From Promethearchaeota archaeon (lineage in GTDB: Archaea; Asgardarchaeota; Lokiarchaeia; Sigyniarchaeales; SOKP01): DNA of 51,969 nt. The notes beneath the pieces are model-generated. The model had not been told where the DNA came from. It saw only the letters and a program-made list of their open reading frames with translations, and ran no database searches. Of the stretch, positions 26,270-51,546 are shown in pieces; the stretch's first letter is position 1; each line of letters opens with the position of its first letter. The translations under genes were made by a program, and so were the position numbers. The stretch covers positions 1 to 51,969 of the forward strand of contig JBHLMP010000015.1 in the NCBI GenBank assembly GCA_048938025.1, read 5' to 3'.

Positions 26270-27568
26270 TTAGTGGGTGGCGCAAGAAATACATGGATCA
26301 AAAGCTCTTATAATTTTTTGAATTTCTTTCTTAACTGTATTTAAATCTTCTTTTTCGTAGAGTTTTCGAGCATAATTACTAATCATCTCATTAATAAGTG
26401 GTATATTTATTTCTGTTGCTATAAATAATTTAGCTTCTTCAAGAACATTTTTATTATTTATTCGATAATGATGAATAAGCAACCCTCTAGGCGCTTCCAC
26501 AACTCCAATCCCTTCTCGAGAAATAATTGATTTAAGATTTGGAAGAGGAATGGTACTTTTTAGAATAGGTTCCTCCAAAATTTTTAATGAATTTTGTGAT
26601 TCAACATACATCTCAATTAATCTTAAAAAGGGCGCATATAGAATATTATTTCTCCATTTGTTATCAAAAAGACTTAAATATTCAGAAATTCCATCTGATC
26701 CATAACTTTCTACAACCTGGTTTCGAGAAATTGGGCCGACTAAGAAATTATGATTTTTATCAGCAAAATCAATACCTCGTATTGTAGGATCTTTGTCAAA
26801 GTAATTAAAATATTCTTCTAATCTGAAGTCCTGACGTTTTGCTAAGTCCTTTTTTATAGTAATAATACCATCATATCTATCATAGGATCTATTATTATTT
26901 AATGAAAGGAAATTAACATTTGGGATTATAAAACTTTCTGGAGGGTTAAATTTTGAGAATAAATCAATGTAGTTTTCAATAATCCATTCTAAATTGTTTA
27001 AAACTTTTAAAAAATACTTTTTGATTATATTTTTCTTATTTTGTGATGGTCTGTAAACAGTTCCCCCTGGGATAGGAGTTATTGTATGAACTGATCTCCC
27101 TCCAAAGAGATAATCTATATCATTTCCTATTTTAATTATATCATATATGTGTGATGTTAATTGTGGGTGAAATTTTATTAAATCATTAACATCAAGAGGC
27201 TTTTTATATATATCAAAAATATTTAAGAGATCTGGTAAGGATTGGAAAAAGTAATGCATAGTATGTGATTTCAATAACTCTCCTGACATTAAGAGCCTTC
27301 TTATTAGAATAGATTGTCGATTAACTTTAATTTTATACATTTCTTCAATGCTTTTACAACTTACTATAGTTTGGGATGCATGGCATAATCCACATATTCT
27401 AGAGATAATTTTAGGAACATCTGATAATTTTTTACCTATTAAGATATTTTCAAATCCCCTGAAGGCTAAAATTTCAAATTCCACACTCGAAATATTATCA
27501 TTTTGAATAAGAATTTTTACATTACCATGCCCCTCAACCCTAGTACAAACATCAATAACTTTTTGCAG
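26270..27568 (-). CDS. Group 3 [NiFe] hydrogenase large subunit (MvhA/HydA-like)
   Basis: TRVEGHG upstream of the track start, RICGLC, EAPRG, DPCISCATH*; probable CTG start at 27568. Confidence 0.88.
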   Translation of the reverse strand: MQKVIDVCTRVEGHGNVKILIQNDNISSVEFEILAFRGFENILIGKKLSDVPKIISRICGLCHASQTIVSCKSIEEMYKIKVNRQSILIRRLLMSGELLKSHTMHYFFQSLPDLLNIFDIYKKPLDVNDLIKFHPQLTSHIYDIIKIGNDIDYLFGGRSVHTITPIPGGTVYRPSQNKKNIIKKYFLKVLNNLEWIIENYIDLFSKFNPPESFIIPNVNFLSLNNNRSYDRYDGIITIKKDLAKRQDFRLEEYFNYFDKDPTIRGIDFADKNHNFLVGPISRNQVVESYGSDGISEYLSLFDNKWRNNILYAPFLRLIEMYVESQNSLKILEEPILKSTIPLPNLKSIISREGIGVVEAPRGLLIHHYRINNKNVLEEAKLFIATEINIPLINEMISNYARKLYEKEDLNTVKKEIQKIIRAFDPCISCATH

Positions 27569-27572
27569 AATA

Positions 27573-28331
27573 TCACCATCTGAATTTTGGTTTCGAAAAT
27601 CTATAGAAGATACCTTTATATTTCCTTAAGTCTTTAGAAAGATTTACAATACTTAAGAAATTTATCAAATTTGATGTGTAATCCTTAGATACAGGTCCTA
27701 AACATCCTTCACAAGGTATCCCATGTTCTATACATATATGATCACATCCCTCCCTGGTTATTGGTCCTAAACATAAAATTCCATTATTTAAAAAGCAATT
27801 TGGATTTTCATCAAGAGAAAATATCTCATCACCAGAAGGATTTAATTTATAAATTTGTTTTTCAATAAGTATGTTATTATTTCCTCTTAGTGGGCATGAT
27901 GAACATAGATTTTTTTCTGACAATTCTATTTCTTTATTTTCTATTAATCTTATTAAACAAGTTCCTATTAGTTTTAAAGGAGGAGGACAACCAGGTATAA
28001 TACCATCGATTTGGACAATATCTGATATTGCACCTGCTTTTTTCTTTTCTGATAAACTTAAAATTCCCCCAAATGCTGCACAAGTACCTAAAGCGTATAC
28101 TTTTTTTGCATTATTTCTAATCTCTTTTAATAATTCAATTTGTGAATCCATCGAGATACAACCTTCTATTAAAGCAATATCACATTCGGTAATTTTATTC
28201 TCATCAGAGATAAAGGGAAAGTAAGAGATATTTGTTCTTTCTAAAAACTCAGGAAATATATCGCTTGAGATTAATGTAGAGATACATCCACTACAGGAAG
28301 TAAGGGATGTTATTAAAAATTTAAGTTTCAG
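27573..28331 (-). CDS. Group 3 [NiFe] hydrogenase small subunit (MvhG/HydD-like)
   Basis: SCSGC and ALIEG upstream of the track start; GTCAAFGG, PGCPP, CLGPITREGC, PCEGCLGP; probable CTG start at 28331 after GGAGGAG. Confidence 0.88.
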   Translation of the reverse strand: MKLKFLITSLTSCSGCISTLISSDIFPEFLERTNISYFPFISDENKITECDIALIEGCISMDSQIELLKEIRNNAKKVYALGTCAAFGGILSLSEKKKAGAISDIVQIDGIIPGCPPPLKLIGTCLIRLIENKEIELSEKNLCSSCPLRGNNNILIEKQIYKLNPSGDEIFSLDENPNCFLNNGILCLGPITREGCDHICIEHGIPCEGCLGPVSKDYTSNLINFLSIVNLSKDLRKYKGIFYRFSKPKFRW

Positions 28332-30867
28332 ATCTAATCTCCTCCGTTAATAGATTATAAAATTTATTTATTGTATTTGTAAATTTGGAACCTTCTACAG
28401 CATTCAGATTCTTTATAATAATTCTCCTACTTAATCGGGGACCTAATACTTTCTTTAACAGGTCTACTTTTTTCTGAATTTTTTGAATTCCATCAATATA
28501 TCTGCATGCATCTTTTCTACAACCAATAACCATTACACCATCAAATCCAAACTCAAAAGATTTAAGGATAAATTCGGTATCAATACGCCCTGTGCATGGA
28601 ACTTTAATTATAAACACATTTGGGTGATAGAATAGTTTCTTTAATCCCGCATCATCTGCAGCAGCATAGCCACAAGATTTACAGCAAAAAGCAATAATCT
28701 TAGGCTTTTTTTTAAATTTAGAAAAAATTTCTATTGTTTTAAGTATTTTTTTGGAAGTATCAATATTCAAATCAATAGCATTTGTAGGACACACACTTAC
28801 ACATGTTCCACAGCCTTTACATTTAAACTTATCGATATTTATTTTATCTCTTCCGATTATTATGGCATTATATGGACAAGAATCTACGCATAATCCACAC
28901 AACCCACATTTTTCTTCATTTATTTTAATTCCTGTAAATTCTGATACTAAATAGTCATTTGAAAGAAGATAAATTATTTCTAAAGCTGTTTGATGTGTTG
29001 TTGAAATTGTAGATTTATAATTTAATGGTCCAAAAATTGTACCAACGCCATAAATACCAGATGCTAATGTTTCTCTACTCATGAAACCATTGTCGTCTAA
29101 AGAAAAGTCCATGTATTTTCGAAGATCTTTTAGATCTTTGTTGGGAATATACTTAAGGTTTAATACAATCAAATCACTTGGAAATTCAATATCATCAGCA
29201 ACCACATTGTTTATATCTTTATTACATTTAATAGAAATATGATTAGCGTAAATAAATCTAGGATTAGTTGATCTTAACAATATCTGATCCTTATCATTTA
29301 ATTTACTCAAATCATAAAAAATATTAACTTTACATTTAGTATTTCTTATTTCAATATCCTCAATATATTTTTGTGCTAAAATTTCAGAGTAATCTGAGAG
29401 TAATTTTGAAGGCCCCACCTCTTGAATAATAGAAACCGAATTTACTTGTTTCTTATCCGATATTCTTAATAATTTCCCTTCTGTAATACCGTCAGAAGAT
29501 AATATACGCTCAAATTCTGGTGAAGTAATAATATTATTTTGAGGATTATAATGATAATCTTTTAAATTCTCACTAAAATCTGACCCGATAGCTATAACTT
29601 TTACACCAACCTTAATTCGGACTTTTTCCGGTTTTTCATTTAAATTAATTGCTTTATTAATACAAGCTCGTTCACAAATCCTACAATTGAGACAGTCTTC
29701 AATATTTTCGTGATCAATTAAAGGGACATATGGATATGAATTCTGAAAAGGGATATATATAACTTTTCTATTTGATAAACCGAAATCATACTGATCCTTT
29801 TTCTCCTTACCACATACATTAATGCATTGTTTACAACCGGTACATTTCTTTTCATCTACATATCTAGGTTTTTTAATTAATTCAATTGTAAAATTTCCCA
29901 CTTCTCCCGAGATTGTTTCAATTTCGCTGTTTGTAAATATTTTGATATTCTTTTCTTTAACTATTTCTCCAATCAATTCTGAAGTGAAACAAATAGAACA
30001 ATCACCCATCTCAGAGATACGGTGCCATCTAGCAACCTTACCTCCTAATGTTGGTGATTTTTCAATAAGATATACTTTTATTCCTGCTTTTGATAAATTG
30101 AGTGCTAAAGTCATACCTGCAATACCCCCCCCTAATATTGCACAAGCTTTCTCAACTTCTACTGTTTTAATTTTTACTTCCTTTTGAAGTCTTACACGTT
30201 CAATTCCTGCTTCTATTAATAATTCTGCTTTTCTTAGAATTAGAACTGCACTAAATTTTTCAAGATTTGAATCATGAACCCAACAGCATTGCTCCCTAAT
30301 ATTTGCAATTTCTATATTTGTATATTCAATCACATCTTTAAAGATACGTTCAAAAATATGTTGGTGTGTTTTAGGAGAACAAGCTGCAATTACTACTTTA
30401 TTTAGAAAATTTTCTTTTGCCCAAGATATGATTTTATTCAAATTCTTTTCTTGACATAAATTATCAAATATCTTGACAGAAACAACATCATTCAACTTTG
30501 CAATATACTTCTCTAAAATTTTAATATTAATAACATTAGAAATTTCAGTATTACAATTACAGATTATTACTCCTATACGATTTATTAAACTTCCTTTTTT
30601 ATCCGAGTATTCTAATTCTTCGCCTGATAAAATACGTTTGTTTAAACTTATTATTTTTAATACTCGTTTACCATCTTCTGTCAAAAAATAAGATCTTTTA
30701 TCTTTACTAATCAATGACCCAAGCTTTTTTAAGTGGAAATTTAATTGCCCCGTTTGGTCTAAACCCAATTTTTCCATTAAATCGGTGTAAGGAATGAATC
30801 CCTCTCTTTCTAAAAGTAAGAGAATTTTTCTACGAAAAGGATGTGATAATATTGAGTAAAGATCCAT
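28321..30867 (-). CDS. ArsR-like wHTH plus HdrA-like flavoprotein plus ferredoxin plus MvhD fusion
   Basis: LSHPFRRKIL..GQLNFHLKKL; IICNC, AACSP, NIREQC, GGGIAG; CxxCxxC repeats; MvhD FCCKSCGY, VPCTGR, GCRKDACRY. Confidence 0.88.
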   Translation of the reverse strand: MDLYSILSHPFRRKILLLLEREGFIPYTDLMEKLGLDQTGQLNFHLKKLGSLISKDKRSYFLTEDGKRVLKIISLNKRILSGEELEYSDKKGSLINRIGVIICNCNTEISNVINIKILEKYIAKLNDVVSVKIFDNLCQEKNLNKIISWAKENFLNKVVIAACSPKTHQHIFERIFKDVIEYTNIEIANIREQCCWVHDSNLEKFSAVLILRKAELLIEAGIERVRLQKEVKIKTVEVEKACAILGGGIAGMTLALNLSKAGIKVYLIEKSPTLGGKVARWHRISEMGDCSICFTSELIGEIVKEKNIKIFTNSEIETISGEVGNFTIELIKKPRYVDEKKCTGCKQCINVCGKEKKDQYDFGLSNRKVIYIPFQNSYPYVPLIDHENIEDCLNCRICERACINKAINLNEKPEKVRIKVGVKVIAIGSDFSENLKDYHYNPQNNIITSPEFERILSSDGITEGKLLRISDKKQVNSVSIIQEVGPSKLLSDYSEILAQKYIEDIEIRNTKCKVNIFYDLSKLNDKDQILLRSTNPRFIYANHISIKCNKDINNVVADDIEFPSDLIVLNLKYIPNKDLKDLRKYMDFSLDDNGFMSRETLASGIYGVGTIFGPLNYKSTISTTHQTALEIIYLLSNDYLVSEFTGIKINEEKCGLCGLCVDSCPYNAIIIGRDKINIDKFKCKGCGTCVSVCPTNAIDLNIDTSKKILKTIEIFSKFKKKPKIIAFCCKSCGYAAADDAGLKKLFYHPNVFIIKVPCTGRIDTEFILKSFEFGFDGVMVIGCRKDACRYIDGIQKIQKKVDLLKKVLGPRLSRRIIIKNLNAVEGSKFTNTINKFYNLLTEEIRSET

Positions 30868-39711: not shown

Positions 39712-40149
39712 GTCATCCTGAATTCAATTTTCCAAAAAAATTTTTTCCTTTTTATAGATTGGATTAAAATACATTAATCATGGGAAATACTATTTTTAAT
39801 TATTACTCTCTAGAATTAGCAGGTAAAAAAACCTCACATAATTGTGCAATTTTGCTACTTTCTTTCACCTATGTTGATTAAGAATTTTTTTCAATTAATA
39901 GACAGGATTGATCATTTTATGGTTCAATCTCGATAATATTGATGATTGAATCCTAACAATTTAGTCAAACTATCGACCAACCAACCAATGCATAATACAC
40001 GAAAAGGATCATCTTTATATAATTTGATAATTTATATTTATCATAGGGATCATATCATTCACTAAAACAATCAATATTATTTTTGAAATCATAAATGTAT
40101 TAAATTTTATTTTAAAAAATAATGGTGATGTTTCACAAAGGTGGATTAA

Positions 40150-42201
40150 ATGTCTGAAATGCAGACAATAGTTAGAATCGGAGTATATATCTGTAAATGA
40201 GGAGTTAATATTGGTGCTAATATTGATTGTGATCTTATAAGGGATTATGTTGAATTTCTCCCGAATATAATTATTGCCAGAGTTAATGATTTTACTTGCA
40301 GCGATTCAGGGCAAAAAATTATTAAAAACGATATCATAGAACTGAATTTAAATAGAGTTGTTGTTGCTGCTTGTACACCAAAAATTCATGAATCCACCTA
40401 CCGAGCTGTTTTAGTTGAAGCGGGATTAAGTCCTTATTATTTTCAAATGGTTAATATTCGGGAACATTGTTCATTTATTCATTCTGGTAATAAAAAAGCT
40501 GCAACAAAAAAAGCTATTAGATTAATAAAGGCAGGTATAAATCGCTCACGGGAATTAGAAATTATCCCATATAATAAAATTTCATTGGAAAAGGCTGTAT
40601 TAATTATTGGTGCAGGAATTGCTGGGATGAATGCAGCATTAGATTTAGCAAATCAAGGATTTATTGTTTATTTAATAGAAAAAGAAGCTACTATCGGTGG
40701 AAAAATGGCACAATTAGATCGAATTTATCCAACAGATGATTGTGCTATATGAGTTCTTGCGCCTATTATGGTGAGTGCTTCAAAGCATCCAAATATAAAT
40801 TTAATGACTTATAGTGATATTGTCGGATTCAGTGGAAACCCCGGGAATTATGAAGTTAAAATAAGAAAAAATCCCCGTTATATTGATGAAAATAAATGTA
40901 CTGGTTGTGGATTATGCATGGCAAAATGTCCAATAAAAATTCCTAACGAATTCAATAGAGGCATTGGGGAACGAAGCGCAATTTACATACCTTTTCCTCA
41001 AGCAATGCCTAAGATTGCCCTAATTGATAAGAATACGTGTATAGAATGTAAAAATTGCCAAAGATCTTGTCTTGCGGAGGCTATTGATTTTGAACAAGTT
41101 CCAGAGTATGTAGATTTAAAAGTTGGAGCAATAATCGTGGCTACAGGATGGGATGAATACTCAATTATGAGAAGTAATGAATATAAATATGGTATTTATC
41201 CTGATATAATTACTCAATTAGAGTTAGAACGTATGTTAAGCCCGGTTGGTCCAACAAATGGACATCTTTACAAGATTTCTAATGGAAAAACCCCAAAAAC
41301 TGTAGTTATGATTCAATGTGTTGGCAGTAGATCCTTAAAAGGTAATCCATATTGTTCTGGAGTATGCTGTAATGTTGCCCTTAAAAATGCTCAACTATTA
41401 AAACAAGAATATCCTGACATGAATATTGCTATTTTTTATATAGATATTCGGACATGGGATAAAGGAAATGAAGAATATTATAGAAAAGCAAGAGAAGCAG
41501 GCATAATGATGATTAGGGGAAAAGTTGGAGATATTCGGGAAGATCTGGATACAAAAAAACTAAAAATCCATGCATCTTCTACCTTAACTGGTGAAATTAT
41601 TACAACAAATGCAGATTTGGTTGTACTATCAACCGGTATGGTCCCTTCCCAAAATATATCAAAAGTTAGCGATATTTTAGGCTTAAGTAAAGATGCAAAT
41701 GGCTTTTTAACTGAAATTCATGGATGTTTAAAACCTCAAGAGACAAATAGTATAGGTATTTATATTTGTGGATGTGCTGCAGGTCCTAAAAATATTCCTT
41801 ATTCAGTATCAACAGCATTAGCCGCAGCAAGCAAAGTATCAACATTACTTTCTAAAGATATAATGACTCAAGAATTAATAATTGCTGAAGTAGACAAAAA
41901 TCTTTGTATGGGTTGTCATAGATGTAGCAAATTGTGTAACTACAAAGCTATATTGGTTAATAAAGAAGGATTTGCTGAAGTAGATTCTCTAAAATGTAAA
42001 GGTTGTGGAGTTTGCGTAACATCCTGCCCTGCTCGAGCAGTTGATCTCAAATATTATAGAGATAAACAAATTATTGAAGAAATAAAAGGAATTTGTAGTA
42101 CTGAAATTGAATATAAGGTAGAAGACATTGAATTAATTGAGCATATAAAGGAAAAGATTGAATCAATAGCTCCTCTTAAAATTTTACCCGAAATAGAATG
42201 A
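40150..42201 (+). CDS. hdrA: Heterodisulfide reductase subunit A, selenoprotein with two in-frame UGA codons (U17, U201), 683 aa
   Basis: One continuous frame: IGVYICK-TGA(40198)-GVNIG..AACTP..NIREHC..GAGIAG..PTDDCAI-TGA(40750)-VLAP..QCVGSR..YCSGVCC; both TGAs occupy Cys positions. Confidence 0.9.
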
Positions 42202-42330
42202 TCCTTTCAAAAAAATTTTAGTTGAGAGGAAACTAACCCATAGCAAGGGTTTTCGGAGAAAATTATACTCTTTGAATTAGCTGGATAATTTCTTTCTTGC
42301 TTATTTTAAAAAAAAAATAAAAAATAATAT

Positions 42331-42660
42331 TTATGGATAAACTTTTTTTTGTTTAAGATATGATTTAAATTCACAAATGAGCCAACAAAGCTCAACATAA
42401 GTTAAAGTGGAGTCAAAAATTGCCTTAGCTCTTCTACAAACATCTCTTTCTGAATAACCTTTACGACCTTTTTCAAATAATAGTTGGAATTCAGCAAGTT
42501 GCCAACATAAATCTTCATAAGGAAGGCGTTCTTGTAAGAGATTGAAGGTTGCAAATTTAACTTGAGGCTTAATTGTATCATTTTTTTCCACTATAAGGTT
42601 AAAATCTTCTAGATCCATTTTTCTTTTAACCTCTTTAGAATATCTTATTATTTTAGACAT
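42331..42660 (-). CDS. Small hypothetical protein with an internal repeat
   Basis: YEDLCWQLAE and YVELCWLICE; GGAGGT SD upstream. Confidence 0.75.
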   Translation of the reverse strand: MSKIIRYSKEVKRKMDLEDFNLIVEKNDTIKPQVKFATFNLLQERLPYEDLCWQLAEFQLLFEKGRKGYSERDVCRRAKAIFDSTLTYVELCWLICEFKSYLKQKKVYP

Positions 42661-43143: not shown

Positions 43144-45987
43144 ATGGATAATATTAGTCAATTATTAAAAAGTTTGCTGGAAAGTAATGAGAAACTAGTA
43201 TTTTTAGCAGGAGCGGGTTGTTCTAAATCAGCTCCATCTTTATTACCTGATGGTTATGAATTATTCTCTATCCTCATTAAATTTTTAAGCGACGATTTGG
43301 AAATTGAAGATATAAGAAAATTCGCTAATCTAAATGTTGAAACCTTACTCAATTTAGTTTATACTTATATCGATCCAAATTTAAAAATATTTGATTTTTT
43401 TGAATCATGCTTTAAACCAAATTATTTGCATTATTTTCTTGTATTTATGATAAAAAGAGGTCATTATGTTATAACTACAAACTTTGATAATTTAATTGAA
43501 TTAGCTTTAATCCAATCTGATGTTTCCAAAAAGCATATAATTCCAATTATTACAGAAGATGATTATGAAAAATATGAAGATTTTACTAATTTTATCAAAA
43601 AACAAAAGCTATTTTTATTTAAAATACATGGTTCATCTAGAAATGTTATAAATAATGCAGATACGAGAGAATCTTTAATCAAGACAATTGAAAAAATAAG
43701 TTCAAATACTAAAAAACTGAATTTATATCAATTAGAGCCTTATAAACGATTATTATTAGAAAAAGTATTTAATAAAAGCTCATTAATAGTAATTGGTTAT
43801 TCAGGGAAGAGCGATTTTGATATTGTTCCTACATTGAAGACTCTTACTACATTAGAAAATCTTTTTTGGATAAATCATATAGAAAATAGTGATGAAAATC
43901 AAATATATGAAATAGATAATGAGAAAAATAATGAATTTGAAATAAATAACGATTATTTAGATGATATTCTTTTAGAAATTAAAAATAATAATCAAAAAAC
44001 AAAAATTTATAGGATTAATGCTAATACACCTAAGTTTTTTGAATACTTAACTAACTTTAAGAAAGAAATAGATTTACACATTTACCCTGCAGATTTAAAA
44101 ATTTGGATGAAGTTCCATCTAAAATCACCAGATTATTTTATGAAAAAGTTAATTCTACTTAAAATATATATTAATTCTGAATTGTATGATGAAGCTTTAA
44201 AGTGTGGAGAGGAAATTTTACAATTAATTGAAAAAAGGGGAGAGAATTCTTTTGAATTAGATGTAATTACTGATATTGGATTAATATATGAAAAAAAAGA
44301 AAACTATGAGAAATCACTAAATTATTATCTCTTAGGAATTCAAATTTCAGAAAATATGAATAATCTCACAAAAAAAGCATTTATTCTTTCTAGAATTGGT
44401 TCAATAAAAGAGAAAGAAAAAAAATATGATGAAGCATTTGAGATCTATAAACAGGAACTTAAATTGTATAAAGAATCAGAGGAGATTAACAAAAAAATAA
44501 AATGCCTTTATAGAATAGGATTAATTTATAAACAACAAGCATTTTATAAAGAAGCATTAGAAATATTTGAAGAAGCTCAAAATATTGAAAAAAAGCGTGG
44601 AGATTTTAAAAATCAAATCAAAATTATTAATCAAATTGGAAAAGTTTATCATATTCAGAAAAATTATTCATTAGCCCTTAAAAATTTTGAAGAAATTGTT
44701 CATATTGCTGAAAAATATGATGATTTGTTATTAAAAGCAAAAGCTCTTAATAAAATCGGTTCTATTTATATAAAACAAAAATTATTTGATCAGGCATTAG
44801 AAAAAATCGAACAAGCATTTCTTATAGCAAATCAACAAGAATATAAATCCTTAATAATTTCTATATTGAACAATTTTGGTAAAGTGTATTTAAAACAAGC
44901 TGATTTTTTAAATGCGTTGTTAAAATTTGAAGAAGCATTAAACTTATCAAATGAAATAGATGATTTAAAAGCAAAAATGTTATCTTTTAATAATATTGGT
45001 GATTTTTATAAGAAAAAGAATAAAAATAAGGAAGCTCTCAAATATTATCTTGAAGCCTTTAATCTTGCAGAGACTTTAGGGAAACTAAAATATAAGTGTA
45101 TTTATTATTATAAAATTGGAACTATTTATAAAAACCAAAAGCAATTTGATGACTCATTAAATTTTCTTGAGAAGGGTTTAATAATCTCTAAGAAATTTAA
45201 AGATCTGTCAGGACAACTACTATTTCTTAATAATATAATAGAAATATATGAAGAGCAAAAAGATTACGTTAATGCTTTAAATAGATATGAGGAAGCAGTT
45301 GAAATTGCGGAAATTTTAGATGATTTAGAAAATAAAGCTTCTTATCTTAATAATATTGCCATCATTTATTATAAACAAAATAATTATTCTGAGGCTCTTA
45401 AATTATTTGAATTATCTTATGGTATATTAAATCAAATAAATAATTTAGAAAGTAGAACTATTAGCCTTAATAATTTAGGAACATGTAATTATAAGTTGGA
45501 AAATTATTCCCAAGCATTAAGATTTTTGGAGATTGCTTGCCAAATAAATGATCAAATAGGGAATTTAGAAGAGGAAGTATGGTATCTTAACAAGTTAGGA
45601 AATATAAATTATAATTTAAAAAGATATCGTGAGGCTTTAGAAAACTTTAAAGAGGCTCACCAAGTTGTTGAATTATTGAATAATTTAGAATTAAAAGCAA
45701 TTCAACTGAACAATATTGGTAAATCTTATTATTTTCTTAGAGATTATAATAGTGCTATATTAAGTTTTAAAAATGCATTTGACTTAGTAGATCAAAAGGA
45801 TCTACTTGAATTTAAAGCAGATTTACTCAATAATATAGCAGGCGTTTATTATATGCAGAATAAATATTTGAGTTCATTAGAATATGCTAAACGATCATTA
45901 GACATCTTAAATGAGATTGGATTACATTCATCAGAGAAAGCAAAAATATTGATGAAAAAAGTTGATTTTTTAGAAAATTATAATTAA
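43144..45987 (+). CDS. SIR2-like domain plus long TPR array
   Basis: FLAGAGCS, TTNFDNLIE, KIHGS, VIGYSG.SDFD; many roughly 40-aa TPR repeats (LNNIG..Y..Y..AL). Confidence 0.88.
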   Translation: MDNISQLLKSLLESNEKLVFLAGAGCSKSAPSLLPDGYELFSILIKFLSDDLEIEDIRKFANLNVETLLNLVYTYIDPNLKIFDFFESCFKPNYLHYFLVFMIKRGHYVITTNFDNLIELALIQSDVSKKHIIPIITEDDYEKYEDFTNFIKKQKLFLFKIHGSSRNVINNADTRESLIKTIEKISSNTKKLNLYQLEPYKRLLLEKVFNKSSLIVIGYSGKSDFDIVPTLKTLTTLENLFWINHIENSDENQIYEIDNEKNNEFEINNDYLDDILLEIKNNNQKTKIYRINANTPKFFEYLTNFKKEIDLHIYPADLKIWMKFHLKSPDYFMKKLILLKIYINSELYDEALKCGEEILQLIEKRGENSFELDVITDIGLIYEKKENYEKSLNYYLLGIQISENMNNLTKKAFILSRIGSIKEKEKKYDEAFEIYKQELKLYKESEEINKKIKCLYRIGLIYKQQAFYKEALEIFEEAQNIEKKRGDFKNQIKIINQIGKVYHIQKNYSLALKNFEEIVHIAEKYDDLLLKAKALNKIGSIYIKQKLFDQALEKIEQAFLIANQQEYKSLIISILNNFGKVYLKQADFLNALLKFEEALNLSNEIDDLKAKMLSFNNIGDFYKKKNKNKEALKYYLEAFNLAETLGKLKYKCIYYYKIGTIYKNQKQFDDSLNFLEKGLIISKKFKDLSGQLLFLNNIIEIYEEQKDYVNALNRYEEAVEIAEILDDLENKASYLNNIAIIYYKQNNYSEALKLFELSYGILNQINNLESRTISLNNLGTCNYKLENYSQALRFLEIACQINDQIGNLEEEVWYLNKLGNINYNLKRYREALENFKEAHQVVELLNNLELKAIQLNNIGKSYYFLRDYNSAILSFKNAFDLVDQKDLLEFKADLLNNIAGVYYMQNKYLSSLEYAKRSLDILNEIGLHSSEKAKILMKKVDFLENYN

Positions 45988-51153: not shown

Positions 51154-51546
51154 ATGGTTAAAATATTGGAAAATATTTGGATAATGACAACTACAGGATC
51201 TGTAATATATCATCGTAAATATGATCCTATTATTGATGAACAGCTTTTTGGGGCTATAATTTCATCTCTAAATACATTTGCCGAAAAAGGTTTATTTGAA
51301 GATTCAATCTCAAGTTTCGTAATTAGTGATAAAATCCTTTATCTTAAAAAAAAAAATAATATCTTGTTTGTTACTGACACTTCAGAAAAGAAAAAAGAGA
51401 AAAAATTAATAAAAGAATTAGATAAAGTAATAGAAAAATTTTTTAACCTTTTTCCACCTAATATTTTTATTAATTGGGATGGAGAAATTAATCAATTTGA
51501 AAGCTTCGAAAAGGAGATAGAAGAATCATTAAAAGAATATGATTAA
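51154..51546 (+). CDS. Longin/roadblock-like small protein
   Basis: IWIMTTTGSVIY..DEQLFGAIISSLNTF..WDGE. Confidence 0.65.
   Translation: MVKILENIWIMTTTGSVIYHRKYDPIIDEQLFGAIISSLNTFAEKGLFEDSISSFVISDKILYLKKKNNILFVTDTSEKKKEKKLIKELDKVIEKFFNLFPPNIFINWDGEINQFESFEKEIEESLKEYD

Follow-up and report, generated by a model that had tools for sequence, protein, structure and literature searches.

We identified an hdrA gene in a metagenome-assembled genome (MAG) of a Promethearchaeota archaeon (Lokiarchaeia) which is predicted to encode a protein with two selenocysteine (Sec) residues and which appears to have taken over the end of a lost neighbouring gene, vhuD, together with its selenocysteine insertion sequence (SECIS) element (Table 1). 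HdrA is the flavin- and iron-sulfur-containing subunit of heterodisulfide-reductase-type electron-bifurcating complexes. The gene lies on a stretch of 51,969 nucleotides (assembly GCA_048938025.1, contig JBHLMP010000015.1, positions 1 to 51,969 of the forward strand), which is referred to as the window. We hold with high confidence that the region is one intact hdrA gene, and both of its internal UGA codons are very probably decoded as Sec, a conclusion drawn from the sequence. With translation table 11 the locus is called as two open reading frames (ORFs), 40447-40752 (101 aa) and 40768-42201 (477 aa). When TGA is read as Sec (U), one frame extends from the ATG at 40150 to the TGA at 42199-42201, with internal TGA codons at positions 17 and 201 only and with no TAA or TAG; the opposite strand over the same span, taken as a control, has 12 TGA codons and dozens of other stops. 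An earlier note on this DNA had already joined the two ORFs and an uncalled 5' part into one 683-codon frame with these two TGA codons, and the translation agrees with it. The Cys residues that it had pointed out at both corresponding sites of a paralogue in the window are likewise read there, as C-N-C and D-C-S-I-C.

The frame was compared across 15 orthologues of 77-95% identity, each from a different genome of the genus. For codons 1-16 the pairwise differences at the first, second and third codon positions averaged 0.045/0.090/0.273, for codons 18-200 they averaged 0.115/0.055/0.312 and for codons 202-650 0.113/0.071/0.316. A coding signature is thus present before, between and after the TGA codons, which indicates that the frame is far beyond chance and that translation begins at codon 1 and runs on past the two TGAs; purifying selection on the 16-codon leader is sensible only if translation passes codon 17. 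That relatives might lack the TGAs, which the earlier note had allowed for, is not what was found, as both sites are TGA in 15/15 orthologues while third positions nearby vary at ~0.3 per site. The same comparison bears on the possibility that UGA terminates translation here, in which case the protein would be assembled from a 16-aa peptide, an internally initiated polypeptide and the product of the 477-aa ORF, or an N-terminally truncated HdrA alone would be made. Both called ORFs start with ATG (40447 and 40768), and HdrA variants without the N-terminal domain occur in anaerobic methanotrophic (ANME) archaea (PMC9012536). However, the breaks would fall inside the N-terminal motif and inside the P-T-D-D-C-x-I-U motif of the flavin adenine dinucleotide (FAD) domain, exactly on Cys/Sec columns. 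In addition, codons 1-16 and 18-99, which lie outside any called ORF, are under in-frame purifying selection, and the same two-TGA pattern is found in 60 of 102 HdrA frames. We consider a split gene highly improbable.

The read-through product is certain, from its sequence, to be a member of the HdrA family. It aligned colinearly with the HdrA of Methanococcus maripaludis (9SFI_A, E 5.3e-215, query residues 9-650 to chain residues 5-651) and with that of Methanothermococcus thermolithotrophicus (5ODC_A, E 6.2e-208), and further structure matches were 8RVU_a and 7BKB_A. Pfam searches recognized an FAD/NAD Rossmann region (Pyr_redox_2/NAD_binding_8, residues 149-215) and ferredoxin domains (Fer4 at 244-262; Fer4_21/Fer4_10 at 579-630). 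In 5ODC_A, Cys stands opposite each of C15, U17, C50, C75, C107, C197 and U201, of which U17 and U201 are Sec in the predicted product. The alignment with HdrA homologues that the earlier note had proposed therefore places U17 at a Cys and U201 at Cys197 or Sec197 of solved structures. The M. thermolithotrophicus protein has the same four-domain layout, with Cys13 and Cys197 in place of U17 and U201, and differs in having no selenium. The M. maripaludis protein (PDB 9SFI; PMC13518236, 2026) is alike in being full-length colinear and in carrying Sec197 in a D-C-x-x-U motif, but has a single Sec, a Cys in the N-terminal C-x-C-G motif, and VhuD/Vhu hydrogenase and HdrBC as partners. The window host, in contrast to M. 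maripaludis, is not a methanogen on the evidence in hand.

The 3' end of the gene was compared with a paralogous hdrA-vhuD cassette on contig C85, which is 73% identical. Beyond the last stretch shared with ordinary hdrA, window positions 42137-42257 align with the last vhuD codons and the SECIS of the C85 cassette, and the HdrA tail matches VhuD residues 120-145 (15/26 identical, BLASTP E 3e-05). Taken together, the alignments of the hdrA 3' end and of the vhuD tail and SECIS indicate that the gene is an in-frame hdrA-ΔvhuD fusion with an inherited vhuD SECIS. No FlpD match was found at the window hdrA locus, and the ORF that follows the gene is encoded on the minus strand. The genome holds five Sec-HdrA genes, four of which are followed by a FlpD gene with two TGA codons, the window copy being the sole exception. 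The ancestor was very probably an ordinary hdrA-vhuD-SECIS cassette, from which an in-frame deletion of ~400 nt took out the hdrA stop codon, the spacer and ~120 vhuD codons. This deletion left HdrA joined to the last ~25 VhuD residues, with the vhuD SECIS directly behind. HdrA-MvhD fusions (the Methanosarcina HdrA2 type and the paralogue in the window) are alike in having an MvhD/VhuD-derived C-terminus on HdrA, but they keep the whole FlpD domain, whereas in the window hdrA FlpD is deleted and a short tail only is left.

The fused type was found at 25 of the 41 loci examined in public MAGs named Promethearchaeota. At 23 of these 25 loci the SECIS lies ~145 nt past a C-terminal landmark motif, compared to 513-551 nt at tandem loci. 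A tree of 102 unique HdrA frames, built with FastTree, places the fused sequences in one clade of 31 tips, one of which is truncated at a contig end. This clade is sister to 10 tandem loci, with a support of 1.0 at the common parent node and of 0.0 at the fused clade's own node. The distribution points to a single old deletion in the sequences' history, followed by retention.

The SECIS element at the end of the gene is of the Loki type and is predicted to be three-armed, the lower helix closing the junction. In an alignment of the 15 orthologous 3' regions 97.5% of the cells are paired, with compensatory changes in 4 pairs, compared to 29-64% paired in slid controls. RNAalifold returned the same three helices (SECIS stem, lower helix and side hairpin), and compensatory changes occur in 2/6 lower-helix pairs. 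The strict stem-loop pattern is present in 13/15 orthologues, the remaining two deviating at the loop start only. The vhuD SECIS on C85 has the same side and lower arms, and the window element is near-identical to it. We propose that this single kink-turn SECIS directs decoding of both UGAs, 2.0 kb and 1.45 kb 3' of them, and that the terminal UGA terminates translation because it lies inside the SECIS core. In 12/15 orthologues a TAA closes the frame 5-6 codons earlier; in the window genome and two others the frame continues to the UGA of the SECIS core.

It could also be argued that this copy of hdrA is decaying, with the TGAs as nonsense mutations and with vhuD lost as well. The usual partner is indeed gone, the gene is distant from the other hdr/mvh genes of the genome, and its tail is weakly constrained. 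A decaying copy is difficult to reconcile with TGAs that stay fixed at Cys-aligned columns among varying third positions, with the lack of any frameshift, TAA or TAG in 683 codons of an AT-rich genome, with purifying selection in all three segments, with a SECIS conserved through compensatory changes and with the retention of the fused form as a clade of 31 sequences. A pseudogene is, in our judgment, extremely improbable.

Table 1. Features of the hdrA locus and of the Cys-type paralogue in the window.
Feature	Position	Strand	Evidence or remark
hdrA gene, predicted selenoprotein	40150..42201	+	683 codons and TGA stop; translation, HdrA structure matches, Pfam domains
GGTGG ribosome-binding-like motif	40140..40144	+	5 nt before ATG; motif seen in the sequence, putative function
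UGA codon 17 (predicted Sec), C-K-U-G, N-terminal C-x-U-G motif	40198..40200	+	Cys13 of 5ODC_A; TGA in 15/15 orthologues
UGA codon 201 (predicted Sec), D-C-A-I-U, canonical HdrA Sec site	40750..40752	+	Cys197 of 5ODC_A, non-standard residue of 9SFI_A
Last stretch homologous to ordinary hdrA 3' end	42000..42108	+	local DNA alignment to the hdrA-vhuD locus of contig C85
Deletion junction, 28 nt	42109..42136	+	paralogous locus has ~427 nt: hdrA end, spacer, ~120 vhuD codons
vhuD remnant, HdrA C-terminal tail (~residues 660-683)	42137..42198	+	DNA alignment to vhuD 3' end
Loki-type SECIS	42188..42256	+	pattern scan, covariation, RNAalifold
SECIS lower helix (6 bp)	42188-42193 with 42251-42256	+	
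SECIS AUGA core	42198-42201	+	contains the stop codon; begins at the last base of codon 683
SECIS 9-bp stem	42202-42210 with 42222-42230	+	perfect pairing
SECIS 11-nt loop	42211-42221	+	begins AAAAA
SECIS AA	42231-42232	+	completes the AUGA_AA core
SECIS side hairpin (4 bp)	42236-42250	+	conserved, 3' of the core
Cys-type paralogue, winged helix-turn-helix (wHTH)-HdrA-MvhD fusion, 848 aa	28321..30867	-	Pfam DUF7347 (N-terminal winged-helix) and FlpD (C-terminal); internal Cys control

Decoding of UGA would proceed by the archaeal/eukaryal-type Sec pathway, with an intron-containing tRNA-Sec, PSTK, SepSecS, SelD and SelB/EFSec. Profile searches for this machinery were performed on the whole genome (3.52 Mb, 88 contigs). 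SepSecS (484.3 bits, cut-off 224.85) and SelB/EFSec (243.7 bits, cut-off 242.25) were found, together with two tandem SelD genes [C35:31639-33734 (+); 190.7 and 164.6 bits, cut-off 125], each with one in-frame TGA. The tandem selD genes agree with the multiple selD copies described in Loki and Thor genomes (PMC11227280). A tRNA-Sec candidate was located 76 nt from SepSecS. Its anticodon loop reads CUUCAAA, and its T-loop holds an insertion of 31 nt that exactly matches the 31-nt T-arm intron reported for Lokiarchaeota tRNA-Sec (PMC4989117). The Sec machinery that the earlier note had wished to see in the genome is thus in place, with a PSTK-like gene below its cut-off. The other strict SECIS matches in the genome are all directly behind TGA-containing frames (VhuD twice, a VhuU-like, a Prx-like and two unnamed frames). 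Assembled DNA contigs from four runs in four studies showed no other letter at 40198-40200 and 40750-40752 among the matches listed, and the TGT or TGC that the earlier note had considered at these sites did not occur among the listed matches in independent assemblies and metagenome contigs. Its central suggestion, that both UGAs are recoded, is well supported by the conservation, the machinery and the SECIS at the stop codon.

Read-through might, always or at times, insert a residue other than Sec, for example through a genome-wide reassignment of UGA or, under selenium shortage, through near-cognate decoding as Cys or Trp. Cys is tolerated at both sites in paralogues, and the nature of the inserted residue is deduced from sequence. 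Against a reassignment, no in-frame TGA is present in the window's table 11 ORFs of 947, 928, 848, 760 and 730 aa, which argues that UGA is not a general sense codon. Moreover, a dedicated Sec pathway is encoded, and the in-frame TGAs of the genome precede SECIS elements and are found in known selenoprotein families. Insertion of a residue other than Sec is therefore very unlikely.

The two unnamed frames that precede strict Loki SECIS elements were inspected. The first, of 161 aa [C77:4361-4843 (-), corresponding to L154:159-644 (-)], has two adjacent in-frame TGAs (H-A-D-U-U-A-D) and stops 8 nt short of the SECIS. No Pfam or NCBIfam family was recognized in it, and it is not one of the seven selenoprotein families that the available text of PMC11227280 names for Asgard archaea. 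Relatives were found in 33/41 related genomes, down to ~20% identity, and 37/37 matches listed carry two TGAs. The second, of 112 aa [C72:81958-82293 (+), corresponding to L155:359-697 (+)], has one TGA (S-T-U-T-L-A-F-C), with the SECIS directly after it at C72:82301. It also matched no Pfam or NCBIfam family, and was found in 2/41 genomes, those of the window and of its closest relative.

Several results weigh against a functional two-Sec HdrA at this locus. In the vhuD-derived tail the coding signature is weak (0.195/0.122/0.204 at codon positions 1/2/3). The PSTK-like gene scored 139.4 bits, below the curated cut-off of 290.5, and the tRNA-Sec candidate 34.6 bits, below the Rfam gathering score of 47. 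ARAGORN detected no tRNA in the window and no tRNA-Sec genome-wide, the intron-containing candidate having been given by the Rfam model. Rfam at gathering thresholds gave 0 matches in the window, and in E-value mode region 42100-42340 gave chance-level matches only and no SECIS family. A single-sequence fold of 42165-42300 was not better than shuffles (z -0.32), so that support for the SECIS comes from covariation and not from folding energy. The overlay of assembled contigs is weak, as no piece spans the whole stretch and its result holds for the matches listed. Actual insertion of Sec is something we infer from the sequence. Finally, the best NCBIfam model, HdrA2, reached 813.9 bits compared to a cut-off of 1100 (profile positions 1-646 of 777), and other NCBIfam HdrA equivalogs also stayed below their cut-offs (602.8 compared to 1300 and 591.6 compared to 1400). 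No adjacent hdrB or hdrC gene (CCG-domain) is among the annotated window ORFs, and of the 33 CCG-domain matches genome-wide none is on the contig of hdrA (C87). The family is certain; the physiological substrate is not, as equivalog cut-offs were missed and the contig has no CCG-domain gene, and a function of the window HdrA in reduction of the coenzyme M-coenzyme B heterodisulfide (CoM-S-S-CoB) is not assured.

Multi-Sec HdrA of Lokiarchaeota is not new; it has been in print since 2016 (PMC4989117), and an Asgard survey of 2024 (PMC11227280) covers it as well. The emphasis that the earlier note had placed on the novelty of several Sec in one HdrA is thus overtaken by the 2016 paper, which describes HdrA with up to four Sec per protein and one SECIS serving up to six UGAs over ~2 kb. 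The gene resembles these multi-Sec proteins (HdrA.1-4; Mariotti et al., 2016) in Sec at the ~200 site and an extra Sec at a conserved Cys, and its SECIS resembles the published lokiSECIS (Mariotti et al.) in the AUGA core, the 9-bp stem, the 11-nt A-rich loop and a distance of up to 2 kb to the UGAs. For Lokiarchaeia hdrA/frhD, the AUGA_AA form of the core has been reported (Huang et al., 2024, PMC11227280). The published systems are also alike in a UGA stop adjoining the SECIS and in the 31-nt tRNA-Sec T-arm intron. Both papers state that vhuD/frhD comes after hdrA in every case and that the SECIS follows the second of the two genes. The window gene differs from this tandem in keeping just the last ~25 vhuD codons, fused in frame, and from the published cassettes in that its SECIS core overlaps the hdrA stop codon. 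The covarying side hairpin and lower helix are not mentioned in the available text of PMC4989117 and PMC11227280. Loss of vhuD with retention of its tail and SECIS thus differs from what is in print in that text, and such loci may stand in the supplementary tables of both papers. Added here are the deletion map with the vhuD-derived tail, the single fused clade, the co-occurrence of Sec sites and the link to the 2026 structure.

The identity of the two sites was tabulated over the 102 HdrA frames. Site 17 is U in 60, C in 39 and a gap in 3. Sites 17 and 201 are (U,U) in 60, (C,C) in 37, (C,U) in 2 and (U,C) in 0 frames, the 3 others being gapped at 17, so that Sec17 occurs without Sec201 in 0/60; the sequences are related, and the co-occurrence is a pattern and not a statistic. 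In the literature, the N-terminal [4Fe-4S] cluster of one protomer is stated to have Cys197 of the other as a ligand (PMC9012536), and a density joining a cysteine and Sec197 is described between cluster A3 and the FAD, its role being left open (PMC13518236). A literature search on the identity of the N-terminal cluster-ligand Cys of HdrA returned unrelated papers only. Sec17 and Sec201 may both act on the N-terminal [4Fe-4S]/FAD relay in the HdrA dimer. From the lack of Sec17 without Sec201, the Cys197 ligation and the Cys-Sec197 density, it is possible, though rather doubtful, that they constitute one functional unit of the dimer and that, with the rarer Sec50 and Sec75 of paralogues, they mark the places around the N-terminal [4Fe-4S] cluster between the subunits, and around its FAD relay, at which selenium replaces sulfur. 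If true, the cluster would carry up to two selenolates as ligands, or there would be a Se-Se/Se-S shuttle. The vhuD-less clade would then place selenium chemistry in the low-potential branch of HdrA and not in hydrogenase docking, and a neighbouring gene would be able to capture a SECIS through a single in-frame deletion. Homology of Sec17 to the first VhuD Sec was considered and is not claimed (HdrA residues 1-137 compared to VhuD, BLASTP E 2.8).

Some HdrA homologues have TGA codons in other arrangements. Locus L115, from a MAG labelled Chloroflexota bacterium, encodes a homologue of 43% identity in which the canonical site is TGA and site 17 is Cys. Locus L058 (G002) has extra TGAs at codons 260 and 297, aligned with Cys of the inserted ferredoxin, which gives four TGAs in one HdrA. 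At locus L052 (G023) an extra TGA at codon 112 is aligned with Ser and may be an error or a nonsense change.

The gene neighbourhood was examined at 23 loci. FrhB-like genes flank the orthologue in 20 of them; in the window genome hdrA is flanked only by a Cdc48 gene and an unannotated ORF. The Cdc48 gene and this ORF of 109 aa are common to the closest genome only (1/23 loci), and no operon partner can therefore be read from the window. Without VhuD, the electron source of the enzyme would be a partner other than Mvh/Vhu hydrogenase, possibly an FrhB-like protein. Elsewhere in the window, a Cys-only operon [26270-30867 (-)] consists of the HdrA fusion listed in Table 1, followed by the small (27573-28151) and large (26270-27484) subunits of a NiFe hydrogenase, the latter ending in D-P-C-I-S-C-A-T-H; a DNA-binding-type domain joined to HdrA, as in this fusion, is unusual. 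Also encoded are a 947-aa SIR2-like protein with TPR [43144-45987 (+)] and a small protein whose longin domain is of the Fuz/Mon1 type [51154-51546 (+)].

Standard gene callers fragment the window hdrA and four similar genes in the genome, and HdrA counts and electron-bifurcation inventories of Asgard MAGs will therefore be wrong unless UGA/Sec is modelled. With Sec17 and Sec201, structural studies have two defined residues to look at together, which is timely since the M. maripaludis structure of 2026 left the role of Sec197 open. The fused clade represents a natural experiment in which one deletion shifted the SECIS from vhuD to hdrA, with the result kept across the clade. This suggests that a Loki SECIS serves every UGA lying 5' of it in the transcript, whichever reading frame precedes it, and that a two-Sec HdrA stays useful without the VhuD adaptor.

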